Of a stretch of DNA of 32,648 nt, positions 9,833-32,648 are shown in pieces (position 1 is the stretch's first letter; every line of letters starts with the position of its first letter). Origin of the DNA: a virus. Taxonomy: Duplodnaviria > Caudoviricetes. Made by a program: the position numbers and the translations under genes. The DNA lies in IMG/VR virus record IMGVR_UViG_3300011339_000531, positions 1-32,648 of that record. One strand, 5' to 3'. Below the pieces are notes generated by a model, which ran no database searches, was not told where the DNA came from, and worked only from the letters and a program-made list of their open reading frames with translations.

Positions 9833-12800
9833 TGAACAAGACTCCTAGTATTATCGACACGTATTACAAATCTTTAGGAACAAAGATTTATAGAGATACA
9901 ACTGCTTTACCTTTTGCAGATGGTGGTCCTCTTAACGATAGAAATATTCATGGAGATTTATTGCCAAGTGTATACGCATCAGCATTAGGAAGATACTACG
10001 GCAATGGAGGAAAATTCTTAACTGCAGGAGGAGAGTATCATCGTATATATAAAAATCCTGAAGGAGATATAATGGTAAATCATCCTCAAGAAGATAAAGG
10101 AAAATGGGATACTATCAACCTAACAGAAAAAGCAGATGCTAATACAATCACTGAAGGTGTAGAAGCAACTAAACAATGGCATGCAGATAATCCTAATGTG
10201 TACGGTAGTGGTGGACAATTAAAACCTGATTACTCTTTACCAGAAGATAGCTTTCAGCAAGGAGGTAGAGGATTAAAAAACAGCGTATATGCATCAAGCA
10301 TGGGACAATACCCTGCTCCTTATGCAGAAGGAGGACCACTAAATGGTGATCCTGGTCCTAAGCCAAAATTTAAACCTCAACCTAAACCTTTAGTTATAAC
10401 AGATCCTAAGGAATACGCTTATAGAAAAGCTGCATATGATGATAGTCTTTGGTTATATCAAAACAATTTAAGGATACCTGCTTTAATGCAACCTTATAAA
10501 TCTAAGTATAAGAAAAATGATAGTTGGCTTGAAAAATTAGCTAAATGGTCTGTTGATGAAAAAGTAATTAATAGAAAAAACCTAACACTAACACCTCAAC
10601 AATTTAACCAAGGATTAAAAACAACCTGGTATCAATCAGGTATAGGAAGACTTATTAATCCAGTAGGAGATGGTAAAAGTCAAGACCTTAATCATTTATA
10701 TACTACAAATGAAGCTGATAAGCATACATATTCTCCTGCATATGATGCGTATTATGATATTGGTAAATCTAAAAATGAAAAAACAGGATACTATTTAACA
10801 GGTCATAGAGATTTACCTAATAATGAGCCTATTAGTTATGTAGGTAATAGTATGAGAAGTAAAAATAATACAGGGGAATCAGGACAATTTATTTCTCAAT
10901 TTGAACCGCGCTATAAAAAACCAGTACAACCAGTACTTTTTAAAGAAGAGATAAAGCCTATTAAAAAAACTTATCCCCCTGTGGTTAAAAAACCAGTTAC
11001 CTATATAAATCCTCCAGTAGAAGAAATAATCCCTACTGAGCAACCACAACCACCTATTCAAGATAATTATCCACCACCTCCATCAGCAGAAGGATTTCCT
11101 CCAGGACCTCCACCACCTCCTCCATTTAATGGAGTAGAACCATTTATACAAGGAGATCCTATTCCTGAATATGCTACACCAGATCCTGGAGCAGAATTTG
11201 TTCCTGATACAGAGAGGTACATTGATTGGAACGGTAATAGCATTGGCTTTAATGGAGTTAGATTTAGAAAACCTGGACATGGAGGAGATTTAATTAAAAA
11301 AGGAAGTAGACATTATCTTCATTACCCAAGTATTGAAACTAGGCATTCTGCGGATATTGTCCCAGAAGATACAGAAGAGTTTGCGCAGGGAGGAATGATG
11401 AATCAATATCCAGATGGAGGACCTATTTATACTTATGCAAAACGTCCAGGCTCGTATTATCAAAAAGATAATAACGGCCAATGGTATATTAGTAATAAAG
11501 GGACAGGTGGACAATACGTACCTGTAGATGATCCAAGCGGACAACGTGCTGCTGCACTAAACAAAGGAGCAGTAGTAACTATGGCAAATCCTACTGCGGA
11601 TAAATATAGTAATGTTGCCCCTTCTTACGACAAATCGCCGATGGTGCAAAGTGTTGCAGGCAGGACAGAAGCAGAAAGGCAGCCAGTTGAAAATGATATC
11701 TATTCTCAAAATTTTATGTCTCAAATGAGACAAGATACGGCAGAGTCACAAAAAAATGCACTACCTCAACATGAACAACCACTAGTTGCACAAGATTGGC
11801 TTTGGACTTTACCAATGATGGGGGGTTCGGCAATTAAAAGTGCTGGCACAGCTTTAGCAGATGGTATAGGAGCATTAGGAACAAAAGCTGCACCTTATAT
11901 TACAGGAGCACTAGAAACATCAATACCAGGTATGGCTTCTGTGCCTGGAGCAACTGTAGGTAATGCAGTAGCAGCAGGATTTGCCGCTGATGCGGCAGTA
12001 AATAGACTGCCTAAAATTCCAGGTCAAATTTCTAGAGGAGAATATACAGATGCTGCTGCAAATGCTTTAACAGGTGTTCTTGATGTAGCTGGAGCAGGTG
12101 TAATGTCTCCATTATATCAAGGAGCTAAATCAACAGCATCTGAATTTGGTAAATTGTTAAATACAGAGGACGGATTACTATCTAATACTTATAAAGTAAA
12201 TCCTTTTGCTTTTAAACCAAATCCAAATGCTTATTATAGGGGAATCGGTAAAGCAGGCATGGATGATGCACTCAACACAGGAGTTTTACGTTCAAATAAA
12301 ACAGGAACAGGATTAACAAATAATACTACTTATGACGCAGTATTTTTTGACAAAGGCAAAACAAGACTAGCAGATGCTTTGGGTAATGGTAATATTGCTG
12401 AGGTAAGAGACGTACCTATGAAAGAATTTTCTCCTAATCATATGGGTGTAGCTGCTTTTGATGAAAATACAGGAAAATTTTTAAATGAAATTCCTTTAGG
12501 AGATAACACAAGACTATTAAAAAAAGATTGGTTAAAAGGTTACAAAGAAGTTAATAAAGAAATTATTCCAGAATACACCTCTAATAACATATCTCAAAAT
12601 TCTGCAGCAGCAGAAGCTTTAGTAGGAAAACCTTTTATGTCTTTAAATATTCCAAAAGAAGCCTCACAAAATCTTGCTGATAAATCTTTTTCCAAACTAT
12701 TATCAAATCCTAGTTTTGTCGACCAATTAAAAGAATGGAATTTAGGAGTAAATTCTGATATTAACAGTAACGTAGATTTAAATACAGCATCCGCAATTGA

Positions 12801-13650
12801 TTTACCAAATTTAAGTAAAGAACAAATATTAAAATTAAGTGAACAGCCTATTTTATTTTCAGACGATTTAGCAAAACAATATGAAAATTATGAAAGTGTT
12901 GTTAAAGATGAAAACGGTATGTTTACTAAAGTTAGTGGATTTCATGGACACAATACTCCTTTTGATCAGTTTGATAGATCTTATAGAGGTTTAGGTTTTG
13001 GAAATCAAACAAGTGGAGTTTATTTAGGTAATAAATTTAATCCAATATACGGATTAAATTCTGCAAAAGGAGGTTATGGTTTTAATCCAGATAAACCAGG
13101 AAATGTCACATTTACTCCCTTTGTTTCTGAAGTAACAGCAAAATCGCCCGAAAATTTTTATAGTACAGACGAGCCTTTAACACTAAATGCCAGAAAACAA
13201 ATAGGAACAATTAATGGTATTGATTATACTAATCAAGACAATATGTCTTTAGATGCAATTAAACGTAATATAGCTGAAGGATTAGCAAAAAAAGATTCAT
13301 ATGATTTAAGTAAAGATTTAGATGATAAGCTTACAGGATATCAAACAACCGCTTCTGATTTATTAAGAAGTAAAGGAATACATGGAGAAATAACTAATGA
13401 TGGAGAAATTGTTGCATATGATGAAGGAGATGTAATAAAAGGTAATCAACAACTTTATTATGATAATCCTAATCAAGCTATGTTTGGATTATTTATGCAA
13501 GCTATAGCAAAACCACAAGCTGCTCAAACTGCTTCAGATAAAAAATTAATTAATGCTATGAAACATTATTATGGAGAAAAACCAGGAGATAAAGAAGCAT
13601 TTAAAGATTTTAGAAATGGCGGTATATTACCAAAACTCTACAGAAATTAA
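9832..13650 (+). CDS. Modular virion cargo (ejection) protein with (F/Y)xxGG-delimited modules, Pro-rich linker, Gly/Ala-rich hydrophobic region and C-terminal ADP-ribosyltransferase-like domain(s)
   Basis: TAATG-coupled to the muzzle. Motifs FADGG, YGNGG, YGSGG, FQQGG, YAEGG, FAQGG, YPDGG, FRNGG. Poly-Pro at about 11041-11125. FHG...FDQFD...GFGNQTSGVYL...KGIHG...EIVAYD at about 12940-13440. Confidence 0.65.
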   Translation: MNKTPSIIDTYYKSLGTKIYRDTTALPFADGGPLNDRNIHGDLLPSVYASALGRYYGNGGKFLTAGGEYHRIYKNPEGDIMVNHPQEDKGKWDTINLTEKADANTITEGVEATKQWHADNPNVYGSGGQLKPDYSLPEDSFQQGGRGLKNSVYASSMGQYPAPYAEGGPLNGDPGPKPKFKPQPKPLVITDPKEYAYRKAAYDDSLWLYQNNLRIPALMQPYKSKYKKNDSWLEKLAKWSVDEKVINRKNLTLTPQQFNQGLKTTWYQSGIGRLINPVGDGKSQDLNHLYTTNEADKHTYSPAYDAYYDIGKSKNEKTGYYLTGHRDLPNNEPISYVGNSMRSKNNTGESGQFISQFEPRYKKPVQPVLFKEEIKPIKKTYPPVVKKPVTYINPPVEEIIPTEQPQPPIQDNYPPPPSAEGFPPGPPPPPPFNGVEPFIQGDPIPEYATPDPGAEFVPDTERYIDWNGNSIGFNGVRFRKPGHGGDLIKKGSRHYLHYPSIETRHSADIVPEDTEEFAQGGMMNQYPDGGPIYTYAKRPGSYYQKDNNGQWYISNKGTGGQYVPVDDPSGQRAAALNKGAVVTMANPTADKYSNVAPSYDKSPMVQSVAGRTEAERQPVENDIYSQNFMSQMRQDTAESQKNALPQHEQPLVAQDWLWTLPMMGGSAIKSAGTALADGIGALGTKAAPYITGALETSIPGMASVPGATVGNAVAAGFAADAAVNRLPKIPGQISRGEYTDAAANALTGVLDVAGAGVMSPLYQGAKSTASEFGKLLNTEDGLLSNTYKVNPFAFKPNPNAYYRGIGKAGMDDALNTGVLRSNKTGTGLTNNTTYDAVFFDKGKTRLADALGNGNIAEVRDVPMKEFSPNHMGVAAFDENTGKFLNEIPLGDNTRLLKKDWLKGYKEVNKEIIPEYTSNNISQNSAAAEALVGKPFMSLNIPKEASQNLADKSFSKLLSNPSFVDQLKEWNLGVNSDINSNVDLNTASAIDLPNLSKEQILKLSEQPILFSDDLAKQYENYESVVKDENGMFTKVSGFHGHNTPFDQFDRSYRGLGFGNQTSGVYLGNKFNPIYGLNSAKGGYGFNPDKPGNVTFTPFVSEVTAKSPENFYSTDEPLTLNARKQIGTINGIDYTNQDNMSLDAIKRNIAEGLAKKDSYDLSKDLDDKLTGYQTTASDLLRSKGIHGEITNDGEIVAYDEGDVIKGNQQLYYDNPNQAMFGLFMQAIAKPQAAQTASDKKLINAMKHYYGEKPGDKEAFKDFRNGGILPKLYRN

Positions 13651-19222: not shown

Positions 19223-22200
19223 ATGCCAAACGATACTAATAAAGGATTGACTCCTGGAGAAATTAAGAACGAAGAGATATTAACAGGTTTATCTAAAAAA
19301 GCTGTAGAATCTGGCGCTGCCTATGATCCTAAGGTAATTAGAGAAGCCGCTACTTCTAGTGATACTGCTTATAAAGGACAAGAAGCTGATTACGGTATTA
19401 AACCTTTAGATTTCTTTGATCCATATGAGGATTACGTTGCAGAAGGAACTTTACGTGGAGGACAATTTAGTACAGAAGATCTAAACAACATACGTGCTAA
19501 CAATCAATCTAATTGGGAACAAGCAGGTAATGCTATTGGAAGAATAGCAGTAAATGTAGTTCCACAAATCCTAAGTAGTACAGCAGCAATGATAGATATT
19601 CCAGGTTACTGGGATGCTGAGCATGCGGCAACTAATGATATTGTAAATTGGGCAGACAGTGTTAAATCTAAAGTAGATAACGAATGGCTACCTATCTACG
19701 AGAACAGTCCTAATAAATTCATGCAAATGGGTGATTGGGCTTGGTGGATGGCAAGAGGTTCAGGATTAGTAGAGTCGATAGCTTCTTTTGCAGTTACAGG
19801 TATGGGTGCAGGTAAGGTAGCTTCTATGGGAGCAAAAGGCCTAGGTAAAGCACTAGCTAAAACTGCACTAAGTGCAAAGAATGCTCAAATAGCTGAAGGA
19901 GCTGCAGCAAGATTAGCTACGGCCACAATGCTTAATCAATCAGAAGCAGTATTAGAAGCTACTCAAGTATATAAAACTACTTTAGATAACGCAGTTGCTA
20001 AAGGAGTAAACTATACAGATGCTCGCAAGAAAGCCGCACAAGCAGCAGCTACTACAATGAATATCAATAGAGCTAATATCTTATTAAACCTTACATCAGC
20101 AGGTGCTTTCTTGTCTCCTCAAAAGTTTACAAGAGGATTACTAGCGGCTCCTAGTTTAAAGAAAGTAGGAGGAGAAATACTCAAAGAAGGCGTTCAAGAA
20201 GCAGGAGAAGAGTTAGTTAACTTATATGCACAAAAAGCAGGTGAGGCTAGAGGAAGAGGTGTAAAAGATTATATGTCTCAAGGCTACAAAGACATCGATG
20301 CGATGGAAGGCTTTGAAGCAGCTTTCCTTGGTGCTATTGGAGGTATGGGGCAAACAGGTATTACAAGTGCAATGCGTGCTTCTCAATACGGTCCAGGAAG
20401 TATTAAAAATGAAGACGGTACTAGAACAAGTGCTCTTGATCAAGAGAGAGATCGATATACTCAACAACAAGAAGTTATTCAAGAAATGAAAGCAAACGGT
20501 GTTAAAGTCACCGATGCTTTAATGAATATCAAAGAACAACAAGAGTTTGAAGCAAAACTATTTGAAGCTAACCAAAAAGGAGATAACGAAGAAGTAGAGC
20601 GTTTAAGAAGTCAAATGTTCGAAAGTCAAGCACTTAAAGCTTTTAATTCTGGTACTACAGAAACATTAGAAGAATTATATAAAGCTGAAGCTTCTAGAGA
20701 TGTAGAAGAAGTAGGTCCAGAATATATTGCTAGAGCTAACGACGCACTCAAAAGATTAACAGCACTAGAGGATATCTATAATAACTATGAAGGCTACGCT
20801 AATGTAAATGAAATCTTCTTTAATCGTGCTACTGCTGATAGAGTCGCTATCCAAGAGAAAAACTTAGATTCTTTAGTTAAGAATTCTCAGATTGACTACG
20901 GACTACAAGTTCGTGAGATTGCTGATAAATATAAATTTAAGCATACTCACGAAGGAATTATTAAAGAGAATGGCAAAGAAGTAGATAGAACAGAATTTAC
21001 TAGAGAAAGTAATGTTCCCTACAGTCTTTCAGACATTGAAAACAATCCTGGAGAAACTAAAGAGAACAAAGCTACTTACAAGAAATTCTTGAATGAAGTT
21101 AAAAAGACTCAAGCATATAAAGTTCACGAAGGTTACAAAGCTCAATATGAGCAGGTTAGTAAACTAAAAAATGGTTTACAAGAAGAGTTTTCTGAAATTA
21201 CAAGTAAGGGCTATCAAGAAAAAGTAGTCGCTCAGAAAGAAGAAGAAGCAAAAGTGAGCGCTATTAAAGATGGTATTCTTGCAGCTACAACTATTCCAGA
21301 GATTGAAAAATTAGCAGCACAAACAGAAAATGAATCTGTGCAAAAGCTCGCAAAAGAAAAATTAGCAACTATTGCTAATCAAAATGCTGCGGCAGCTAAA
21401 CAAAAAAAGATTGATTTAATTACAGGAGAGATAGGTAATAAAATTGCTCAAGCAACAGAAGAACAACAAGAAGCTCTTGAACAAGAAATTGAAGATGCTG
21501 AGATTAGTCAAGAACGTAAAACAGAATTACGTAATAAATTAGCTAACCGTATCAAGTTACTTAATGGTGAGGACGTTGAGGGTACAACTGACTTATCTGA
21601 CCCAATGAGCGTATTTACTCAAGGTAAAGATTTAGAAGGACAAATTGATCAAGAAGAAAAAGACTTTGAAACTACTCTTCCTACAGATCTCCCAATACCT
21701 ACTGAAGAAGCAGAGTCAGTAGAGAATGAAGTTATCAATGCTGCTGAATCTCTTATTCAACAAGATCAAACTTTTTTAGTAGGATTAGACAATCAAGGAA
21801 ATCTTATCTTTAATTACGACAGATCGTCAGAAGGTTATAACAGAGCAGCTTACTTATCTAGAGAATTTAATCAAACAGATTCTTCAGGTATTATTGACCG
21901 TGAAGAATTTACTAATACTATAGATAATCCACAAGTTTTAGGACCGAATAATTTACTAGCAGGTACTAAACTAGTATTATCAGTAGACACTGAGTATGAA
22001 GGACAAAAGTATGACCCTAGTTCTACTACCAGAGCTACTATGTCTTGGCCATCACGTTTAGCGCAACTACAACAAATAGCTGCACAAAACGGCGTACCTG
22101 TTACAGAATTGAATGAATACATTGCTGAGGTTCCTATTAAAGTTACATTAGAGAACGGCGAGACAGTATTTTATGTACATGATAACTCATGGTACAAAGC

Positions 22201-24895
22201 AGAAAACTTAAATGCTACACCTGAAGAAATTGAAGAAGATAGATTAAGAAACTTTGAGATACGTAAAGCAATTGTTAAAAAAGGTACAGCTAAATCTAAA
22301 GTACAGTATAAAAGCTTTGGTAGAATCTTTAAAACTGCTGACGGGAAACCTGTAAGTGTTGCAGAAGCAATGCCCGATAGCAAATTAATTATTGCTACAG
22401 GAAAAGATGGTGGGTTTAAGCTACCTAACGAAGCAGTACTTAAAGGTGCTACTATTATTAATAAATCTAAAACTCAAGAAGGTCGTCCTTATGCTATTGT
22501 ACAAGTGGGCCCTAAAGAATATTTAGCAATTCCTTTACAACGTCAAAAGTTAGCTAAAGAAGTTGTAGACTCTATTATGTTTGCTGTAGAAGCTCACTTA
22601 ACTAATGATCCTAATAACCCAGTAGTTAAAGCTATCGTAGAAGAAACAGGATTAGATATCTTAGAGACAGAAGGATTACGTCAATACGTAAATCAATTTA
22701 CTTATGTTTTTCCTACAGAAAAAGCTGAAGGATTAGAGAATATCTTATTACAAGGTGGACAAAAAAGTAGATTAAAACCTAATACACCTATTATTAGTAT
22801 TATACCTGCAGGTCAAGCAACTGAGATTCAGTTTGGTAGACCAGGTGTAGCAATGGGATCTTATGTAGATAAAACTACTAATCGACAAGTTAATAAATAC
22901 TCAGTAAGTATTTCTAGAAACTTTGCAGGTACTAAAGGAACTCGTTCTAATGAAGCGGGTATGCGTAAACTTCGTGGAGTATTAGAACTTTCACTAAGCA
23001 ATGTACTAGTAGAGAACTTGTCACTAAACAAAAATGCTGCTATTATATTAAATGCTGAAGGCGAGATGATGCCTGTTACTTATTCACAGCATGTAAAAGA
23101 CTCTCACGTTACTAATGTGTTGTCTACTAACATCGGCACAGAAGAGAAGCCAGAATGGGTATATACTATCCAACCTACTGTGTTATTCGACACTAAGTTT
23201 GCAGGTATTGATTCTACAAAGAAACAACGTAAAGCTCAACCTACTACAAAAGTAGCTACCCCACCAATAACTGTAACACCTACTCCTGCTCCAAGTGTTC
23301 CCCAAATGGGAACAACTGCTGATATAGAAGCTCAAAAAGCTGATATAGAAAGAAGAAGACAAGAAGAAGAAAATGACCCATTAAGAGTAAATTTAGCAAT
23401 TTCTTTAGTTAACGCTAAGAATGATGCAAAAGATAATCCTGAGTCTTTATTAAAAGGCTTAACAGATTCTGAAATAGAAGATATATTTAAAGAGGAGCTT
23501 GCAAATATAAATCTCTTAATAACAAAACTAAAAGAAAAAGGAAAATCTAATGAAGAAATAGCAAAAGTTATTTCATCTAGATTAGCAAATTCTAAAGTTT
23601 TAAAATTTAAGAGAGGTTTTAACAACAGTATTGCTAAAGATTTAGAAAATTTTCCAGAGGGTGGTTATAAAAGTTCTAAGGAAATCAATGCTAAATATGA
23701 TGCAGAACTAGCAGCTCTAGAACAACCTTCAGATATTGAGTCTAAAAAAGCTGAGATAGAAACTAAACAAAATGCTATACTAGCAAGATTTGAGGCAGAA
23801 AATATTACACAAGAAAAAGTAAATGACTTAATGAGTTATGATTCTGGCAATGGTAAAATACTAGAACAAGCTCAAAGGTTGATAGATAATTATAATAGAA
23901 TTTTTGATGTAAATGCTAAAGTAATAGGTTTTAATAATAAAAAACTTGATATTCAAATTGGAAATTATAAAACAAGTATAACAGCAGAAGCTCTTAAATT
24001 AGCTGGAAAGTCTGAAATATTTACTATTGATCAAGAAGGTATACTTGAATTAGTTAAAGCTAAGTACGAGGCAGAACTAGCTGCTTTAGAAAAAGAAGAC
24101 CCACTTGCTAAGTTAAATGCATTAAATGCAGGATTAGTAGGTGTTTCAGATACAATTAAAGCATCTAAAGTATCACAATTAAGAACAGATGAACAAATAG
24201 AATTGCTTGCAGCTATTCCTAATATAGAAAGTTACAAAGTAAATGGAGAGATAGATAAGTCACTTATGCCAGCGGACGTTTTGGCTAAGTATGAAGAAAT
24301 ATATGACAAGTATGATAAATTAATAACTCCTTTGTTACCTGCTTCTACAGTTACAGAAGAAGTAGAAGAGTTAACAGGGCAAGCATTAATTGAATCACAT
24401 GCTGAAGAAATCTTAACTCAAGGAATTCCTTTAAAAGATTTAGAAGGCTTCGTAGATAATATTGAGAACGATGTAATTGCTACAGAAGATTTACTTAAAC
24501 AAGGATTTGGTTCTAGACAAATGGCTATTGATTCATTCAAGTTAGCTATTGCTAAAGCAAAACAAAATTCTTCTACAACTACTTTAGCTAACGGCATTAC
24601 TATCAAGATCGATGGTACTACTATTGATGATGCAGACCCAGAAGATGATACTACTATTGATGAGAGTATTCCTGTATTGTCAGCAACACCTGCAGAAGGT
24701 GAATTTGATATAGCAGGTGTTAAAGAGGAAGCAGGATCTCTATTACTAAGCGGATTAGGAACTACCGAGCAATACTCGTTAATTAGTTACCTTGCTGCAG
24801 ATATCATGCAACAAGCATTAAATGCTAAGGAAGTAGACGGCATTCGTAAAATCGAAACAGCTCCTATTTTTGAGAAACATTTAGAAAGTCTTTAG
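19223..24895 (+). CDS. Giant virion protein, N-terminal part of the RNA polymerase locus (1890 aa up to a TAG)
   Basis: N-terminal QSNWEQAGNAIGR, Ala/Gly-rich hydrophobic helices, EGVQEAGEE and FLGAIGG ejection-protein motifs, long coiled coils and internal cassette repeats. Ends in TAG in frame with the next ORF. Confidence 0.75.
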   Translation: MPNDTNKGLTPGEIKNEEILTGLSKKAVESGAAYDPKVIREAATSSDTAYKGQEADYGIKPLDFFDPYEDYVAEGTLRGGQFSTEDLNNIRANNQSNWEQAGNAIGRIAVNVVPQILSSTAAMIDIPGYWDAEHAATNDIVNWADSVKSKVDNEWLPIYENSPNKFMQMGDWAWWMARGSGLVESIASFAVTGMGAGKVASMGAKGLGKALAKTALSAKNAQIAEGAAARLATATMLNQSEAVLEATQVYKTTLDNAVAKGVNYTDARKKAAQAAATTMNINRANILLNLTSAGAFLSPQKFTRGLLAAPSLKKVGGEILKEGVQEAGEELVNLYAQKAGEARGRGVKDYMSQGYKDIDAMEGFEAAFLGAIGGMGQTGITSAMRASQYGPGSIKNEDGTRTSALDQERDRYTQQQEVIQEMKANGVKVTDALMNIKEQQEFEAKLFEANQKGDNEEVERLRSQMFESQALKAFNSGTTETLEELYKAEASRDVEEVGPEYIARANDALKRLTALEDIYNNYEGYANVNEIFFNRATADRVAIQEKNLDSLVKNSQIDYGLQVREIADKYKFKHTHEGIIKENGKEVDRTEFTRESNVPYSLSDIENNPGETKENKATYKKFLNEVKKTQAYKVHEGYKAQYEQVSKLKNGLQEEFSEITSKGYQEKVVAQKEEEAKVSAIKDGILAATTIPEIEKLAAQTENESVQKLAKEKLATIANQNAAAAKQKKIDLITGEIGNKIAQATEEQQEALEQEIEDAEISQERKTELRNKLANRIKLLNGEDVEGTTDLSDPMSVFTQGKDLEGQIDQEEKDFETTLPTDLPIPTEEAESVENEVINAAESLIQQDQTFLVGLDNQGNLIFNYDRSSEGYNRAAYLSREFNQTDSSGIIDREEFTNTIDNPQVLGPNNLLAGTKLVLSVDTEYEGQKYDPSSTTRATMSWPSRLAQLQQIAAQNGVPVTELNEYIAEVPIKVTLENGETVFYVHDNSWYKAENLNATPEEIEEDRLRNFEIRKAIVKKGTAKSKVQYKSFGRIFKTADGKPVSVAEAMPDSKLIIATGKDGGFKLPNEAVLKGATIINKSKTQEGRPYAIVQVGPKEYLAIPLQRQKLAKEVVDSIMFAVEAHLTNDPNNPVVKAIVEETGLDILETEGLRQYVNQFTYVFPTEKAEGLENILLQGGQKSRLKPNTPIISIIPAGQATEIQFGRPGVAMGSYVDKTTNRQVNKYSVSISRNFAGTKGTRSNEAGMRKLRGVLELSLSNVLVENLSLNKNAAIILNAEGEMMPVTYSQHVKDSHVTNVLSTNIGTEEKPEWVYTIQPTVLFDTKFAGIDSTKKQRKAQPTTKVATPPITVTPTPAPSVPQMGTTADIEAQKADIERRRQEEENDPLRVNLAISLVNAKNDAKDNPESLLKGLTDSEIEDIFKEELANINLLITKLKEKGKSNEEIAKVISSRLANSKVLKFKRGFNNSIAKDLENFPEGGYKSSKEINAKYDAELAALEQPSDIESKKAEIETKQNAILARFEAENITQEKVNDLMSYDSGNGKILEQAQRLIDNYNRIFDVNAKVIGFNNKKLDIQIGNYKTSITAEALKLAGKSEIFTIDQEGILELVKAKYEAELAALEKEDPLAKLNALNAGLVGVSDTIKASKVSQLRTDEQIELLAAIPNIESYKVNGEIDKSLMPADVLAKYEEIYDKYDKLITPLLPASTVTEEVEELTGQALIESHAEEILTQGIPLKDLEGFVDNIENDVIATEDLLKQGFGSRQMAIDSFKLAIAKAKQNSSTTTLANGITIKIDGTTIDDADPEDDTTIDESIPVLSATPAEGEFDIAGVKEEAGSLLLSGLGTTEQYSLISYLAADIMQQALNAKEVDGIRKIETAPIFEKHLESL
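23321..24091 (+). repeat. Two tandem intragenic cassettes with conserved ends (DIExxKAxIE ... AKY[D/E]AELAALE) and unrelated cores
   Basis: Left ends gatatagaagctcaaaaagctgatatagaa (23321) and gatattgagtctaaaaaagctgagatagaa (23732). Right ends gctaaatatgatgcagaactagcagctctagaa (23690-23722) and gctaagtacgaggcagaactagctgctttagaa (24059-24091). Confidence 0.85.
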
Positions 24896-24898
24896 CAA

Positions 24899-27800
24899 AT
24901 GCAAAAGCTTTATAAAGAAGCTAACTTGCCTAATAAAGCTAAGAAAGTACAAATGGTAATTGATCAGTTTGATAAAGCAAAAGCACTTACTAATCAATAC
25001 ATGAGTTTGTTAACTACAGGTAGTGTTAAAGAAGATTTAGAATTAAACGATAGTGAGCAATCAGCAGGGTTAGAGAAATTAGTTTACTCTGACGAATGGG
25101 CATTCACGATTAATTCAAAATCTACAGCTAGTGCAGACTTACGTAAGTTCTTTAGTTTTGTAGAAGCTAAAAATGAAAATGGAGATTTGATTACAAGTTC
25201 TTTAGGATTCCCTGAAATCATTCCTTTTGATGTAGTGTATGATACATTGCATGAAATTTTAGCAAATAAGCCTGCAGACTATGTAACAATGATTGATACA
25301 TTGGAAGTATATAAAGAAAAACTCCCATGGTTACAATCAGTTATTGACAACATCGAAAAAGCTCCTGAGCGTATACAAAATGAGTTTGTATCTGATATGT
25401 CTAAACACCATATCAGTATGCAGTTTGTGATGTGGAAGAAAAATCCTAACGGCCAGTATTCTTTAACTCGTTGGTCAAGTAATGCGTCAGCAATTAAAGA
25501 ACGTCTTCGTCGTACATGGAATAATAACATGCATAATCCATTTGGAGGTTCTAATCTAATTGCCGTAGATCCAGCAGGTAATTATTTGTTTAACGCAGAA
25601 GTAGCGGATTATTTATATGAAATAGCTAAAGAATGGGAAGCAGATCCGTCAAAAGTTACCAACGAAGAACTTGCAAATTGGTTGGGTAACTTTGGTATAG
25701 TACTTACAGACGAAACTTATAAAGATTTACGCGACGGCAAATATAAAAACCAAGGTGCAAAATCTTGGAACAAATTATTCACAGATAGTGCTGGTATAAT
25801 TAAAGTATTAGCTAAGAAAATTAAAAATGTTACTGACCAAGGTATTACAGTTGAAGAAGCTAATATTTTAAATGATTCTGCTGTAGAAGCCTTAGCAGCA
25901 TTAGATGCTACTAATAATTTAAATGTATTTAGTAACTCATTTAGAACAGGTGGTAAAACTATTTACTCTTACGGAAATAATAACTACCTAGTTAATCGTA
26001 TGAGAGATCTTACAGCTTACGATGAGGAGAATAAAAAGTTTATTAATCCTGGCTTATTCGACGATTTAAATAACATCTCTTTTACTAGAGATAGTCTTTG
26101 GTTAAAAGAATTACAAGCTGATACTGAAGCAGGGCAATTAATGAGAAGTAATCTTAGATTAGATTACATTTCATTAGAAGCTTTAAAGCAAGAATACCGA
26201 GCTCCTAAAGATGATAGTAAATTAAAGAATCTTAACATAGACGAACACGAGATTGTCAAGCTAGGCATGTTCTTTAATGCTTCTAAGAAAATTGTAGATG
26301 GAGAAATACGTAGAGTAGCATCTTTGTTCTACAACACAATGTCTGATAAATCTACTATGTTAACAATGTCTTTCTTAACAAGACAAGTAGAATTAGAACA
26401 AGAAGGATTAAGTAAAGCAAACTTAGAATTATTATACCAAGCTTTAGTACAACCTGAAGTAAACAGAATTAGAGGTGAGCAATCTAAAAATATTAACGGT
26501 TACGAGCCTAATTTTTTCTATTTCTTACCAGGCTTAAATGATTTAATGATTGATATCAACGGTACTCCACAATCATTTAGAGACATCGTAACATCTAAAA
26601 ACAATCTTTACTTTCAACCTGAAGTTAATGCTGCTGTATTAGATTATTTAAATCAAACGTTTAGTACTTTACTAGAAGAAAAATTAGAAGATTGGAATAA
26701 ATTAGGCATCGGCCAAACAATTAAAAACGAACAAGGAAAAGTTACGGATAAAAATACATTCCTTGATGCAGAGTACATGAGCAAAATTGCTCAAGGAAAT
26801 GCAGAAGGTAAAGTACGATATGCAGCTGCTGACTATCTATTCAATACTTTAATTGCAGGTTCAGAAATGTATAAACTATTTGCTGGTGACCCTGCATTAT
26901 ATGCTAAATTTAAACAAGGTAAAACTATACAAGAAAACTTAGAAGAGACATTTACTAATATGGGTAAACGTCTTGCTGGAGATATTGCACCAGGATTAGA
27001 GTTAGCTAACAGTAAAGGAAGTAGTTATTATCAAGTATTTTTAGGAGATAAAAAGATCAGCAGTAATAACGTTTTAGATGCTGAACAAAAGGCTTACTTC
27101 AATAAAATTGTAAGTACTTACTCAGAAGACTATAGCAACATTGAGGGATCAGATGCACAAGAGTATACAACTTGGAAAGAGCATTTATATGTGATGAAGC
27201 AATTAGGACGTTTGACACAAGAACAATTTAATACTTTAACACGTAAACTTACTAACCAAAGTAATGGTAACTTCTCTGAAGCAAATAAATTAAGCTACGC
27301 AGAGTCTTTATTAGTATTACAACCAATGAAACCTGTATACGTAGGTAACGTTGCTTCTAAAGAAGACAATGCTGACCGCCGTGTGTATATAAAATCTTCT
27401 AGTTTTCCACTTATTCCAGAGCTTACTGCTGGTATGCAGTTAGATAAATTACGTAGTGCTCTTGAAAATTTTGAAGAAAGTAAAAAGAATGAAACTAGTA
27501 TAAGCGGTTCTCCTAAATATGTTAGAGCTTCTTTTGGCACTGCTAATAAAGTAGGAGCTATTAGTAATAAAAATGTTGTTGAAGTATTTGATGATAAAGG
27601 CAATGTTAGAGATGCATTATCTTTTGCGGGAATTAGTGATGCAAGTGTATTAGAACTTCCTAGAGAAAATTTCCGCATTCAGCAAGATGTTCCTTACGAT
27701 AGAGATAAGACAAGTGTAAACATTGGTACTCAAGGACGCAAACTATTATTTGTTGATGCATTAGATCTTGAAGTATCTAAAGGACGTACAGGACAAGACT

Positions 27801-28162
27801 TAATGAATGAGTATAACAAAGCTTACCATGAGTTATTTGCTGATGCACAAGAAGGTTTATCTAGAAAGCTAGGACTTATTGAAGAAGTAACACCTGATGA
27901 TGTATTTACTACTTTTGCTAGCATGCAACCTGATACAATGTTAGTTGATACTATTACAACAAGAACAGAAGAGATTGCTAAAATTAGTTCGCCAATCAAG
28001 AAACAAACTGCTCAACAAGAATTTGCTGACGAAATAGGCGAAGATAACCTAGAAAGAGTTAACTTTATCAACAAAAACTTTGACAAGATAGTAGAAGCGC
28101 TGACTGCTTCTAAGATTAATGTTTTCTTTGACGAGAACAATGAATTTAAAAAATGTGAATAA
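24899..28162 (+). CDS. Virion RNA polymerase, first (beta-like) half; possibly continuous with 19223..24895
   Basis: Motifs FAGDPALY, KRLAG, GSDAQEYTT, QPMKPVY, YIKSSSFPLIP, FRIQQDVP and GTQGRKLLF, typical of the region preceding the catalytic barrel in crAss-like RNAPs. Lacks the DxDxD motif, which is in the ORF at 28662. Confidence 0.8.
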   Translation: MQKLYKEANLPNKAKKVQMVIDQFDKAKALTNQYMSLLTTGSVKEDLELNDSEQSAGLEKLVYSDEWAFTINSKSTASADLRKFFSFVEAKNENGDLITSSLGFPEIIPFDVVYDTLHEILANKPADYVTMIDTLEVYKEKLPWLQSVIDNIEKAPERIQNEFVSDMSKHHISMQFVMWKKNPNGQYSLTRWSSNASAIKERLRRTWNNNMHNPFGGSNLIAVDPAGNYLFNAEVADYLYEIAKEWEADPSKVTNEELANWLGNFGIVLTDETYKDLRDGKYKNQGAKSWNKLFTDSAGIIKVLAKKIKNVTDQGITVEEANILNDSAVEALAALDATNNLNVFSNSFRTGGKTIYSYGNNNYLVNRMRDLTAYDEENKKFINPGLFDDLNNISFTRDSLWLKELQADTEAGQLMRSNLRLDYISLEALKQEYRAPKDDSKLKNLNIDEHEIVKLGMFFNASKKIVDGEIRRVASLFYNTMSDKSTMLTMSFLTRQVELEQEGLSKANLELLYQALVQPEVNRIRGEQSKNINGYEPNFFYFLPGLNDLMIDINGTPQSFRDIVTSKNNLYFQPEVNAAVLDYLNQTFSTLLEEKLEDWNKLGIGQTIKNEQGKVTDKNTFLDAEYMSKIAQGNAEGKVRYAAADYLFNTLIAGSEMYKLFAGDPALYAKFKQGKTIQENLEETFTNMGKRLAGDIAPGLELANSKGSSYYQVFLGDKKISSNNVLDAEQKAYFNKIVSTYSEDYSNIEGSDAQEYTTWKEHLYVMKQLGRLTQEQFNTLTRKLTNQSNGNFSEANKLSYAESLLVLQPMKPVYVGNVASKEDNADRRVYIKSSSFPLIPELTAGMQLDKLRSALENFEESKKNETSISGSPKYVRASFGTANKVGAISNKNVVEVFDDKGNVRDALSFAGISDASVLELPRENFRIQQDVPYDRDKTSVNIGTQGRKLLFVDALDLEVSKGRTGQDLMNEYNKAYHELFADAQEGLSRKLGLIEEVTPDDVFTTFASMQPDTMLVDTITTRTEEIAKISSPIKKQTAQQEFADEIGEDNLERVNFINKNFDKIVEALTASKINVFFDENNEFKKCE

Positions 28163-28675
28163 TGGATAAATTACTTACACCTGAAGAAGAAAAAGCATTA
28201 AATGTTTTCGGTAAATTTGAACTTACTGCTTCTCATGTATATCAACATTTAACAAATCGTATGAAAAGCCTTGCTTACTTCGGTGCAGAGGCATTCTTTC
28301 ATTCTGAATCTCTTGACGAGCGTACACACTATGCTAAGTTAGAAGAATTTATGAATAATATGAATTGCGAGTTAGCAGTAGAATCTTTAGATCCTGTAAC
28401 TTCTTCTGTAGCTAATATAGGAGATGCATTACAAATGGCTTACGAGATGGAATCAGATTTGTTAGCAGCATATGAAAAAGCTTATGATTCAGGAATTAGT
28501 TCTAAAGTAAAAATCTTACTTCAAGATTTTATTAACATCCAAGTATCAGCAGTAGGTGAATACGGAGATTTAATCAACAGACTTAAGCTTACAGACAACA
28601 TGCTTGTGTTTGATGCAGATTTGTTAGAGAGAAGTGAAAACGAAGGTTAAAATTTAGTATTATGGCTTGTGAATA
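28154..28675 (+). repeat. 8-bp direct repeat TGTGAATA (28154-28161 and 28668-28675) bracketing the ferritin gene
   Basis: Read directly: aaa TGT GAA TAa and gct TGT GAA TAt. Both copies encode Cys-Glu in the frame of their RNAP ORF. Spacing 514 nt. Confidence 0.85.
28162..28650 (+). CDS. Ferritin (non-haem, ferroxidase-centre type)
   Basis: 162 aa four-helix pattern: E(LTASHV)Y, GAEAFF...DERTH (ExxH), ALQMAYEME, FINIQV...E. TAATG-coupled to the upstream RNAP half. Confidence 0.87.
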   Translation: MDKLLTPEEEKALNVFGKFELTASHVYQHLTNRMKSLAYFGAEAFFHSESLDERTHYAKLEEFMNNMNCELAVESLDPVTSSVANIGDALQMAYEMESDLLAAYEKAYDSGISSKVKILLQDFINIQVSAVGEYGDLINRLKLTDNMLVFDADLLERSENEG

Positions 28676-31600
28676 TTTTGTAGGAGGTAAATATATCTCT
28701 GAAAACGAATTTAAAGCGCTTTTAAATGAAGGCCTATTAGATACTTTAGTGTCCAATAAGAAGATCGACATGAAAGGCTTTAAGGTCGATGCTACTAAAG
28801 CTATTTCACAAGAACCTAAAATAGTAAAAAGACTTACTGTACCAGCTCCTAAATTAGCAAAGATACTTGCAGACGAAGTAAAATCTAGTCAAGGATATCC
28901 TGCTAATATGCTATCAGCATTAGAGCTAAATGCATCAGGTACAGATTTTAAAATTCCTTTATGGGCTTCTCCTTATGCAGATAAGTTTGAGAGCTTACTA
29001 GCATCTCTTGTTACTAATAAAGTCATTAAACAAAAGTTCCCAGGAGGATCTTATGTACTAGGATCAGAAGAAGGATTTAAAGTTAAAGAAGGTGATGAAG
29101 CTGCAGGAGATTTAAAAAACTCCAACATTGTATTTAGTTCTAAGTTTGATCCTGTGAAGGGTTTACAACCAATGAGATATGATAAAGAGACAGGTAAAAT
29201 ACTACCTGCTCAAATTATGATACCTTTTAAGTTCCGTGATGAGCAAGGAAACATTCTTGACATTAGTCAATTTGTAAAAGACGAAGGGGGCAGACAAATA
29301 TTAGACACGTCCAAGATGCCTGAAAAACTATTACAACTATTTGGTTTCCGTATTCCTACACAGAAACGTAATTCAATGGCTGCAGTAGAGATTGTAGGAT
29401 TCTTGCCTGAAGCTTCTGGAGATTTAATCTTAGCACCAAGAGACTTTGTTAAGCAGATGGGATCGGATTTTGACGTTGATAAATTGTACACATACATGTA
29501 CAATCATTATTATTTAAACGGCAAAATATATACTAATTTTAAAAGCAGCGCTAAAGACATAGCTAAACTTACTAAAATAGTAAAAGATCAGATTACCGAA
29601 CTTAAGGATAACATGAAGATCTCTAAAGAAGAGAGAAAACTTATTGATAATTATATTAATCAAGTATTAGATGCTACCCAAGCAGGTAAAGAAATAAATG
29701 CTGATATTACTCAAAGAGCTAATGAATTAATTTCTAAAGCCATAGCAGTAAAAGCATTTAGTGAAGAAGCTAAAACAGCTTTAAACAATGCCATTACACA
29801 ACTATCTGTATTAAATAGATCCTATAAAGCAGCTAGACAAAATAAAATACTAGATCTTCACTTAGAGATGTTGACTAGTACTAATCCTGAGATTATTGCT
29901 AGTATTATAGCAACTGATACTTATGGAGAATTTGAAGGATTAGCAGCAAGACTAGCAGATATTCGTCGTAAGAAAGGGCTTATTAAAGCGCCTCTAACAA
30001 TTCTATCTGATATTTATCAAAGAGGTAAATACTTAAATGCATCAGCAGGTAAAAATGCTTTAGGTGCATTTTCTTTGGATTCTACTTTTAATGCTATTAC
30101 TCAAGGTAAAAATTTAGCGTATATCAATCTAAGTGCAGAAGAACAAGATAGACTATTCGGCAGTCCTATGAATCCTAGAACTCCTACTGCTGAAGAAATT
30201 ATGGCTGCAAATGATCCAATTGCGGCATTTGGTAATTCTATTTCTAAAGGGGATTTATCTAATAAATATACTTTGAGATCACAATTTGTGATAGCAAAAG
30301 CTAAAGCAGAGAAACGTGATTTGACTAAAGAAGAAAAAGCTTCTCTTAAACTTAAGTCTAGTATTATTGCTGCATTGCAATCTACTGCTGCAGATAATGA
30401 AAAGGGTCAGATTCTTGATAAATTAAATATCAATGACGACAGTCTTCAAGCTATTAAAGCAATGACTTTATTAGGATTTGAAGAGAATGATATTGCAGGT
30501 TTGATTACTCAAGATATCATTTGGGAATATTTCGAAACTTTAAATAAAACTCGTTCATCACTTACTGGTTACCAACAAGATGCTAAGGATAAAATTAGAG
30601 AAGCATTAATTGCTAAATACGATCCACAAGGTAAACTAAAAGGATTATCTCCTGAAGAGTATGCTGCTATGGCTAAAATGGCTGATAAATCAGGTGATGA
30701 ATTATTAGACATGCTAGCTAATAGTAAATTTAATCCTACTGTATCTACAAGCTATAACTTAAACCAACTATTTTTATTAGAAAAGTTCTTAAAATTAGAA
30801 GAAGTTGGTGCTAGCATTCACCAAGTACAATCTACTATCAATAGTGAATCAAGAGGTGTTCCTAAATCTTTATTAGAAACTGCAAACAAAGTAACGCAGA
30901 TTGAGAATTTAGGTAAGTCTATTATCTTTAATGCCTCTGAATTACTAGGCGCATATAATCCTGACACTAAAGTTTTTGAACCTACTACCATCAGCGGATT
31001 TGCTGCAATCTACGGAACAGAGTTTGCTAATACTATTTATCGACCATTCTTCCCGTACCAAACAGCAGGATTTGAGACTTTATTTCAAGAGATATTAACC
31101 CATACGCCGTCTTATAGTAAAGGACAAAGTATGGCAAAACTGACTGAAGCACAAAAGACAGTGTTTAAAGGAGTTAAGTCTTTCTTATATAGTAGCAACA
31201 ATACTAACTTGTTTACAGGAAATCCTGATCAAGAACGTAACAGATTGTTTATGGATGTAGTAGACGGTAACATGAGTCTTGCTAGCATATTACAAAATTT
31301 ATCTAGCCAAACTTGGTTTCAAAAAAATGCATTCCTCAACAAATTAGATTTTAACATCAACACTAACGGCACTCCTTCAAGAATTGAATTTGAAGCAGCG
31401 ACTGCAGAGAACTTTGATGAAAGAAATATCTATGAAGGTTTCTTGTCTTTACTAGACAAAAACTTCCCTGTAGGAACATTTAATGGCGTTGAGTATACAT
31501 CACGTAGTTTAGCACAAGAACTTGTAGCAGCTGCTTTCCTAGAAGGTGGAATGCAAGGTTCTAAGCAATATATGAAATATGTACCTATTGCATACTTAAA

Positions 31601-32648
31601 AACATTAGGATTTGGTGATTATTTATCTAACGTACCATTTAATTTTGTAAGTACTTTTAAAGGAACTCTTACTGAAGCAGGAGCAGTATATAGCCAACCT
31701 TCAGCATTTACACGTCAATACTTCCAAAATAATCCAGAGTTAGCTAAATCTGTTCTTACTGGTGACCTAGAGGGTAAACATACTAAGGCACCTGCAATGA
31801 GTTTTGTTTTAGGCAAAAAGGCAATGGAAGCTAACTTTGTAGACATTACTGATCCTATTACTAATGAGCCTACTAAAGTGCAAACGCAATTTCTATCTAT
31901 CAAAGAACCTAAAGGAAAAATTGCTTTATACGAGTTTGATGCTATAGAAAAAGTTTATCGCCGTATTCCTGTATTAAAAGATAAGTTTGGATTTGTTCAA
32001 TATAACGCAGAGAGTTCTAAACCAATTCCTTTAGAAGCTGAGAATGCTGTGCCTATTAATAAGCCAGTAGATATTCCTACTCCTAATTACAATATTCAAA
32101 ATATTCCTGCAGAGACTCATAAAGAATTTAATGTAGATAATGTAAACAATACTCAGTTGCCTGCAACTGTAGCTACGTTGCCTATATCTAAAACTCTTTC
32201 AGGAACATCAGAAGCATTAGACGATTTAATTAATGCACTAGTAGATTCAGGTGAAATATCTACAGCTAATGTATTCTTACTTAATACCTTACAAGGTTTA
32301 GTAAGACCTGATAACTTTAAATTAGTATACAGCAATGATGCTAGTATCAAGGGTAATTATAACTACGAAACTAGTACGGTAACAATTAACCCTAACCACA
32401 GTAGTATTAAGACTATTGACGATGTAGCTACTACGTTAGTACATGAATTAGTGCACTCAGCTACGGGGCTTACTATCAAACAATACGAAGCAGGGTTAAC
32501 TAATAAGTTAACTGCTGAGCAAATAAAAGCAGTTGAGAATTTAAAATCTGTTCAAAATAAATACATTGAGTATTTAGCTAGCCAAGGAAAAGCAGCTCAA
32601 TTGGCAGCATTTACTGAAGATTATAGAGCTTGGAAAAAAGGTAATAAG
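28662..32648 (+). CDS. Virion RNA polymerase catalytic (beta'-like) half with a downstream zincin-like metallopeptidase domain; 3'-truncated (more than 1329 aa)
   Basis: ATG 28662 (MACEYFVGGKY...). No stop in the portions I translated, and the same frame holds at the window end, which explains its absence from the track. FRIPTQ (RIP 29349-29357), MGSDFDVDKLY (DFDVD 29466-29480, comparable to DFDID of phi14:2 gp66), AGKNALG, ADNEK. KGNYNY...TINP...TLVHELVH (HExxH 32442-32456). Confidence 0.92.
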   Translation, partial: MACEYFVGGKYISENEFKALLNEGLLDTLVSNKKIDMKGFKVDATKAISQEPKIVKRLTVPAPKLAKILADEVKSSQGYPANMLSALELNASGTDFKIPLWASPYADKFESLLASLVTNKVIKQKFPGGSYVLGSEEGFKVKEGDEAAGDLKNSNIVFSSKFDPVKGLQPMRYDKETGKILPAQIMIPFKFRDEQGNILDISQFVKDEGGRQILDTSKMPEKLLQLFGFRIPTQKRNSMAAVEIVGFLPEASGDLILAPRDFVKQMGSDFDVDKLYTYMYNHYYLNGKIYTNFKSSAKDIAKLTKIVKDQITELKDNMKISKEERKLIDNYINQVLDATQAGKEINADITQRANELISKAIAVKAFSEEAKTALNNAITQLSVLNRSYKAARQNKILDLHLEMLTSTNPEIIASIIATDTYGEFEGLAARLADIRRKKGLIKAPLTILSDIYQRGKYLNASAGKNALGAFSLDSTFNAITQGKNLAYINLSAEEQDRLFGSPMNPRTPTAEEIMAANDPIAAFGNSISKGDLSNKYTLRSQFVIAKAKAEKRDLTKEEKASLKLKSSIIAALQSTAADNEKGQILDKLNINDDSLQAIKAMTLLGFEENDIAGLITQDIIWEYFETLNKTRSSLTGYQQDAKDKIREALIAKYDPQGKLKGLSPEEYAAMAKMADKSGDELLDMLANSKFNPTVSTSYNLNQLFLLEKFLKLEEVGASIHQVQSTINSESRGVPKSLLETANKVTQIENLGKSIIFNASELLGAYNPDTKVFEPTTISGFAAIYGTEFANTIYRPFFPYQTAGFETLFQEILTHTPSYSKGQSMAKLTEAQKTVFKGVKSFLYSSNNTNLFTGNPDQERNRLFMDVVDGNMSLASILQNLSSQTWFQKNAFLNKLDFNINTNGTPSRIEFEAATAENFDERNIYEGFLSLLDKNFPVGTFNGVEYTSRSLAQELVAAAFLEGGMQGSKQYMKYVPIAYLKTLGFGDYLSNVPFNFVSTFKGTLTEAGAVYSQPSAFTRQYFQNNPELAKSVLTGDLEGKHTKAPAMSFVLGKKAMEANFVDITDPITNEPTKVQTQFLSIKEPKGKIALYEFDAIEKVYRRIPVLKDKFGFVQYNAESSKPIPLEAENAVPINKPVDIPTPNYNIQNIPAETHKEFNVDNVNNTQLPATVATLPISKTLSGTSEALDDLINALVDSGEISTANVFLLNTLQGLVRPDNFKLVYSNDASIKGNYNYETSTVTINPNHSSIKTIDDVATTLVHELVHSATGLTIKQYEAGLTNKLTAEQIKAVENLKSVQNKYIEYLASQGKAAQLAAFTEDYRAWKKGNK

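Follow-up and report, generated by a model that had tools for sequence, protein, structure and literature searches.

A ferritin-bearing cassette divides the virion RNA polymerase gene of a crAss-like phage and leaves single cysteines at the facing ends

The stretch of DNA analysed here, referred to as the window, is the 32,648-nucleotide IMG/VR virus record IMGVR_UViG_3300011339_000531, in which the virion RNA polymerase (RNAP) gene of a crAss-like phage is interrupted by a complete ferritin gene. An inserted cassette, composed of a C-terminal tail, the ferritin gene and an N-terminal head, probably split the RNAP into a two-chain enzyme. A preliminary description of this DNA had drawn attention to an 8-base-pair (bp) direct repeat, TGTGAATA, around the ferritin gene; the finding is the cassette with its cysteines (Cys), to which the repeat is probably incidental.

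Organization of the interrupted polymerase gene

Three open reading frames (ORFs) were listed for the region, 24899..28162, 28162..28650 and 28662 to the window end. The features derived from them are as follows (aa, amino acids):

19223..28162, plus strand: chain 1, about 2,979 aa if position 24893 is A; a cargo protein that continues into the N-terminal half of the virion RNAP, first barrel included
24893..24895, plus strand: in-frame TAG, probable assembly error or private variant
26800..27877, plus strand: first barrel of the RNAP core, then the beginning of the Connector; homology to intact relatives stops at KLGL (residue 993 of the 24899 ORF)
27878..28162, plus strand: inserted C-terminal tail, 94 aa, ending KKCE-stop
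28154..28161, plus strand: TGTGAATA, first copy, spanning the Cys-Glu codons plus two bases of the stop codon
28162..28650, plus strand: ferritin, 162 aa, its start overlapping the upstream stop (TAATG)
28662..28838, plus strand: inserted N-terminal head, about 55-59 aa, MACEY...GLLD
28668..28675, plus strand: TGTGAATA, second copy, spanning the Cys3-Glu4 codons plus two bases of Tyr5
28839..32648, plus strand: remainder of chain 2, with the rest of the Connector and the second barrel with the catalytic DFDVD (29466); continues past the window

The preliminary description had placed the RNAP motifs on either side of a complete ferritin gene, and its coordinates of ORFs and motifs were all confirmed: DAQEYTT (27152), KPVY (27329) and GTQGRKLLF (27725) lie in chain 1, and GYPAN (28893), KQKFPG (29028), RIP (29349) and DFDVD in chain 2. 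The last motif aligns with DFDID of phi14:2 gp66, and the DFDxD motif of the second barrel of the gp66 family is thereby present. Both halves match gp66 by BLAST, chain 1 to residues 852-1127 and chain 2 to residues 1171-1490; the alignment that had been proposed for mapping the split therefore places it inside the Connector, which spans residues 1095-1238 between the gp66 barrels (10.1101/2020.03.07.982082). Both barrels on one chain, a trait of the gp66 family, is not found in the window. Chain 1 also matches crAssphage gp45 and residues 1899-2884 of FpV4 gp32; its cargo part is related to crAssphage gp45 and occupies the position of phi14:2 gp67. Chain 1 has a single Cys overall, as its penultimate residue, and chain 2, over the 1,329 residues seen, likewise has just one, Cys3.

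The upstream ORF had been read from 24899, and it probably starts at 19223 instead. The TAG at 24893-24895 is probably an assembly error because all four runs that cover the position read A at 24893, which makes it a sense codon. The reading frame is open across this region in 16 of 16 aligned relative ORFs, and the TAG is the sole TAG stop among the 16 closed ORFs listed. Read-through or recoding was ruled out by the same A in the runs. An assembly chimera was likewise ruled out, since both ferritin junctions are crossed by single contigs in three of four runs (X1 record 1, X3 record 10 and X11 record 8), of which X1 and X3 are possible sources of the window DNA and X11 has near-identical DNA. 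A scan of 27600-29000 gave three promoter sites where 5.3 were expected and one terminator-like hairpin on the minus strand. Adenine at -3 of the start codon is a feature of Bacteroidetes; it precedes the chain 2 start in 16 of 23 loci, which is a weak signal.

Anatomy and distribution of the cassette

The extent of the insert became clear from the nearest intact relatives (L053, L055 and L051), whose empty sites are short Cys-free loops. If the window protein is joined at the repeat, it has 149 residues where L053 has 14, and the intact relatives are without about 135 residues of the sequence flanking the repeat. Therefore the insert consists of tail, ferritin and head, with the repeat inside. 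It is about 950 nucleotides (nt) long, not 514, and comprises a tail of 94 aa with Cys at its end, the ferritin gene and a head of 55-59 aa that starts MAC. The core of L053 (59-69% identical) was folded as a stand-in for the window; the AlphaFold model, with a predicted local distance difference test score (pLDDT) of 88.8, matches 6VR4 at E 1e-28 and then QDE-1, and the split site in it is a two-strand hairpin (residues 382-392).

The last ~36 aa of the tail are 27-61% identical to tails found at ordinary junctions between genes in five ferritin-bearing members of a distant lineage. The tail Cys, unlike TGTGAATA, is present in all 17 aligned tails, and in the head M1, C3, Y5, E14, K18, L21, G24, L25 and L26 are invariant in 17 of 17. 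Neither part has an invariant Cys or His beyond the one Cys per end.

The distribution of the arrangement was followed in loci collected with two RNAP profiles, from which the best 80 of 195 and the best 80 of 180 matches were taken (160 loci); after removal of 21 duplicates and 6 incomplete loci, 121 distinct intact and 12 split RNAP loci remained, and 11 of the 12 split loci have the layout of the window. A ferritin profile gave 23 loci. In every one the gene before the ferritin has Cys at its end and the gene after it has Cys at its start; 13 of these sites are within the RNAP, 9 are at the ordinary upstream junction in the distant lineage and 1 (L038) is elsewhere. Among the nine, the RNAP downstream is intact in seven and two loci are incomplete. 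The distant lineage is about 4.2 changes per site away in the RNAP core, and between the window and one of its members (L125) the ferritin is 80% identical and the head 44%, against 27-36% for the RNAP core.

The inside-RNAP ferritins were rejected as one clade (12 of 33 rows; approximately unbiased test, p-AU 1e-42), and so were the split RNAPs on both flanks in quick trees of 16 rows (11 split, 5 intact), with p-AU 7e-4 upstream and 9e-54 downstream. On both flanks the split L054 groups with the intact L055, and the intact L053 falls among or beside split forms. This interleaving implies that the cassette was gained or lost at least twice at one site in the RNAP. We infer that it moved by recombination between co-occurring phages, with no mobility gene. 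Three further loci were recorded beside these. In run X16 record 20, aligned to window 27774-28841, flanks, tail and head are near-identical and the middle is mostly unalignable and 19 nt shorter, which fits a swapped ferritin. In run X14 record 11 a window-like ferritin end is followed by a different head. In L038 (3665-13083) the tail-ferritin-head unit joins two large proteins that have no RNAP match and no significant Pfam family.

The ferritin itself is unambiguous by profile (PF00210, 45 bits against the Pfam cut-off of 24.5), and its best PDB sequence matches are ferritins; no match was found among GenBank phages. E20, Y27, E53, H56, E97 and Q127, which we take to be the di-iron ferroxidase ligands, are invariant in 33 of 33 phage ferritins, and position 130, where many bacterial ferritins have a third-site Glu, is Ala in the window. 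The neighbours of ferritin vary. Among RNAP-anchored and ferritin-anchored loci, to which the head counts apply, five (L130, L132, L137, L139 and L159) have the head module directly after a Cys-ended gene and no ferritin; ferritin is therefore not required for the coupler. At 104 of 134 RNAP loci there is no ferritin within the fetched span. A more distant set of 62 distinct ferritins (from 80 loci, with query rows taken from RNAP neighbourhoods) comprises 41 that are not beside a large gene, 13 between facing Cys, 5 beside an RNAP without both Cys and 3 beside other large genes. A second preferred site is seen in L207-L248, where many distant phage ferritins have a ~235-aa gene on one side and on the other a gene that starts M[AS]YF[NP]HA. 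On these comparisons we read the ferritin as an auxiliary late gene, carried in the coupler gap probably as a passenger, and it looks active as an iron oxidase.

Terminal cysteines and the joining of the two chains

The cysteines of the window belong to a wider pattern. At 132 of 136 cargo junctions there is a Cys in the last 6 residues of one protein and in the first 10 of the next, against an internal Cys frequency of 0.067% (the junctions are closed, between ORFs of at least 1,000 aa and touching the RNAP ORF; open-ended and distant pairs were left aside, and the loci are related). In phi14:2 the proteins gp67, gp66 and gp65 have four Cys in total, each at a facing end, and FpV4 gp32 has one Cys in 4,287 residues. 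Fully fused polyproteins of more than 5,000 aa, for example L082, L097, L104, L105 and L113, have no Cys. In crAss001 (L016) the terminal Cys are kept though gp50 and gp49 are encoded on one strand and gp47 on the other, and joining at the level of DNA, RNA or the ribosome is therefore excluded there. In L151 (2-9253 and 9263-13768) the RNAP core is split independently, about 100 residues later and just past the Connector; here too the Cys face each other, ferritin is absent, and the second chain carries an ART-PolyVal domain. By sequence comparison, facing terminal cysteines are a rule at cargo junctions across the order. Two loci were noted alongside: L144 (2720-4068) has a ferritin and an extra 288-aa protein, with Cys at both ends, between two cargo genes, resembling an added chain link, and L056 (2245-16870) has two overlapping cargo ORFs without Cys, probably one fused polyprotein with a frameshift error.

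On this basis we consider it likely that the virion RNAP encoded in the window consists of two chains, which dock through their added ends and are linked by a disulfide. The ~950-nt block of tail, ferritin gene and head cuts the RNAP gene between the two barrels; the two chains would be translated separately and both packaged; the added tail and head are predicted to dock, and a disulfide would then close between the only cysteines of the chains. The tail/head unit would be the normal chain-to-chain coupler of the order, and the cassette, since it would bring its own coupler, could cut an essential enzyme without breaking the cargo chain. During threading through the tail the tether would preserve the N-to-C order of the unfolded cargo, which could be released by reduction once in the host cytoplasm, and in the cell the two barrels would reassemble on separate chains, like beta and beta-prime. 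The ferritin would travel between the coupler halves as a passenger. We infer these steps from translation to barrel reassembly. The docking itself was modelled: the tail-plus-head complex scored 0.40 against 0.04 for the best control, with contact agreement of at least 94% and partner pLDDT of at least 69, which lends weak support. Of 157 solved complexes 116 reached the mark used, as did 2 of 215 mismatches; at scores of 0.60 or lower, those that reached it were only 18 solved complexes and both mismatches.

The alternative that survives best, itself unlikely, keeps the same protein-level coupler and lets the cysteines bind a metal (Zn or Fe) or be singly modified, with docking mainly non-covalent and no disulfide. 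Virions assemble in a reducing cytoplasm, the cysteine rule as such shows only conserved, facing Cys, and ferritin lies between many of these pairs, all of which would suit it. It is opposed by the presence of one Cys per end with no further invariant Cys or His in tail or head, by the precedent of cyanophage A4, which is a disulfide (PMC12002296), and by the inter-subunit disulfides carried by crAss001 virions (PMC10172136).

The ferritin could also take an active part in the coupling, as a di-iron oxidase that is translated together with the ends on either side of it and that oxidises or shields the thiols or ties the linkage to iron status. The exact position between facing Cys ends of all 23 close and 13 of the 62 distant ferritins speaks for such a role, as do the invariant di-iron ligands and the coupling of the ferritin start to the upstream stop. 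It is nevertheless improbable, given the five loci with a ferritin-free head after a Cys-ended gene, the lack of ferritin at most Cys junctions and the 41 distant ferritins not beside a large gene. The first and last of these comparisons also leave the earlier suggestion that RNAP production might be tied to iron unsupported, since the head module occurs without ferritin and those 41 are not next to a cargo gene.

Joining of the ends by a peptide bond, through trans-splicing or another Cys-based ligation, would give one chain and would make use of the Cys conserved at both ends. No Pfam family was found at E < 0.01 in tail or head, hence no intein, and no split-intein match was found in the ferritin either; the Cys are sub-terminal with variable residues beyond them, and gp66 was crystallised as a separate 2,166-residue model (10.1101/2020.03.07.982082). 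We regard such ligation as very improbable. The protein-level joining raised in the preliminary description was in the right direction, and the probable means are the conserved terminal cysteines, on which that description had not remarked.

With disulfide linkage of two docked chains as the preferred reading, there remains the repeat. TGTGAATA occurs on the plus strand only at 28154 and 28668, 514 nt apart as first described, and the match cannot be extended on either side. The exact in-frame fusion reported across it is true and is uninformative: each copy opens with a Cys codon that is in frame in its gene, which makes an in-frame join automatic. An 8-bp match is present in 3 of 23 distinct ferritin-plus-head loci (the window, L054 and L129), the other 20 having 3-6 bp, and L129, with the match at an ordinary junction, has an intact RNAP. 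Among the split loci it is present in 2 of 12. When pairings were shuffled given the conserved ends (Cys-x-stop and Met-x-Cys-x-Tyr), 0.65 such matches were expected against the 3 of 23 observed (p 0.0096), an excess that is faint, unexplained and weak at most; related loci are not independent. The repeat is likely a by-product of the two Cys codons.

Active rejoining at the repeat, by DNA excision, RNA splicing or a 514-nt ribosomal hop, would draw on this slight excess and on the matched GAA codons of the window, with a stop directly after the first, and it is scarcely probable. The repeat is missing in 10 of 12 split loci, and the 8-mer is missing from three of three empty sites of the intact relatives examined, so that the preliminary proposal of rejoining by any of these routes through the repeat is not supported. 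A matched last and landing codon occurs in 5 of 12 split loci, mostly since the last codon is Cys itself, and is missing in 7; Met1 of chain 2 is invariant; and the cysteine rule holds across opposite strands in crAss001. The search for a 28154 to 28668 joint in DNA, which had been suggested, found none among the contigs of eight runs (contigs drop rare variants); the contig joints listed, two in one set of runs and three in another, are none of them at the repeat and derive from diverged relatives. An Rfam scan of 24000-32648 showed no intron family and only one sub-threshold small nucleolar RNA match, which, with the Pfam result, agrees with the earlier statement that no intron or intein signature is visible.

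That the repeat is a target-site duplication from an insertion of only the ferritin gene, as the close flanking of that gene by the two copies had suggested, is no more credible and is largely refuted, since the empty sites (L053, L055 and L051) hold no 8-mer where a single copy had been predicted, and no Cys and none of the ~135 flanking residues, and the copies sit mid-insert, with the insert borders ~280 nt and ~165 nt outside them; of the original insertion proposal, splitting by insertion into a probable two-chain RNAP stands.

Several points weigh against the disulfide-linked two-chain RNAP and the mobile cassette. A metal bridge suits the sequence equally well, and in the available text on the crAss001 cryo-electron microscopy (cryo-EM) structure (PMC10172136) disulfides are described in the tail and portal vertex and none between the cargo proteins, which are largely unresolved there. 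Packaging of either chain would follow from homology. The tail-head score is weak and comes without contacts from which a Cys-Cys distance could be taken, and 4 of the 136 junctions have no facing Cys pair. No source is shown for the first ~58 aa of the tail. The trees give no direction or donor for the cassette, and in the downstream tree L054 and L055 share a long branch and an unusual composition. When the window, which had been chosen for its repeat, is left out, the 8-bp match is still slightly commoner than shuffling gives, in 2 of 22 loci against 0.45 expected (p 0.053).

Setting, known systems and biological meaning

By a Pfam-type profile search, the genes upstream of the RNAP genes match the tail ring, muzzle and cargo-1 families (CrAss_Ring_1/2, crAss_MUZ and crAss_CARG1), so that the window is a late module of a crAss-like phage, with the position expected for Crassvirales. 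Near-identical DNA was found in 12 of 20 listed runs from three studies; the runs that bear a habitat label are riverine, and 10 runs are possible sources of this DNA. Holin-like, CHAP/NlpC endolysin-like and metallophosphoesterase-like genes at 930-2827 form an ordinary lysis region, and a Cys-free 1,272-aa protein at 9832-13650, between muzzle and cargo 1, has no Pfam or PHROG match.

The closest known protein is phi14:2 gp66 (PDB 6VR4; 10.1101/2020.03.07.982082), with which the window shares a homologous core, the DFDxD motif and the position within the cargo block, and whose Cys are only at 3 and 2179. It differs in having both barrels and the Connector in one chain, whereas in the window the Connector is cut, the cargo protein upstream continues into the N-terminal half, and a tail-ferritin-head unit occupies the cut. 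In Aeromonas phage Aeh1 an essential enzyme is also fragmented by an inserted gene (nrdA by mobE), and insertion-derived C- and N-terminal tails assemble the split NrdA instead of splicing (PMC3045599). The middle gene there is a homing endonuclease and not a ferritin, and the tails of the window are by comparison a pre-existing coupler of ordinary junctions, Cys-ended and recurring across distant lineages, with a predicted role. Between the ejection proteins of cyanopodophage A4, cryo-EM located a disulfide from Cys1715 of gp27 to Cys5 of gp26, by which the C-terminal helix of gp27 is linked to the N-terminus of the next protein (PMC12002296); the window has facing Cys and a predicted bond, whereas A4 has a T7-like pre-ejectosome with one link and no polymerase.

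Cellular multisubunit RNAPs likewise carry their barrels on separate chains, beta and beta-prime (10.1101/2020.03.07.982082). The two-chain state of the window is, in contrast, derived from a single chain, as the intact outgroups indicate, and its ends bear added Cys-tipped modules. With the bypass of T4 gene 60 the window shares matched codons and a stop after take-off; the gap is 50 nt in T4 against 514 nt with a full gene here, and this anatomy is missing in 7 of 12 split loci. Fragmented RNAP genes of Zeta crAss phages are mentioned in two reviews (PMC10136315 and PMC7886860), the available text of which mentions neither ferritin nor this split. A literature search, with subscription papers outside its coverage, found no paper on an RNAP split by ferritin or on the terminal cysteine rule in crassviruses.

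The cargo of crassviruses must partly unfold to pass tail constrictions of less than 50 Å, and how the multi-megadalton cargo is ordered and threaded through the tail is described as an open question (PMC10172136). We are evenly divided on the broader proposal that in crAss-like phages the ejected proteins are threaded as a single chain held by disulfides, and that these phages exchange a portable cassette for cutting and relinking (docking tail, ferritin and docking head) which can be inserted into surface loops of the cargo, even between the barrels of RNAP, as a redox-releasable counterpart of a split intein with no mobility gene. Such a cassette would be a route from a single-chain two-barrel polymerase to a two-chain one, as in cellular beta and beta-prime, and would mean that the fragmentation of an essential gene can be made good with neither splicing nor a mobility enzyme. 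The small natural tail/head pair, possibly covalent on closing, would serve as a protein-joining tag.

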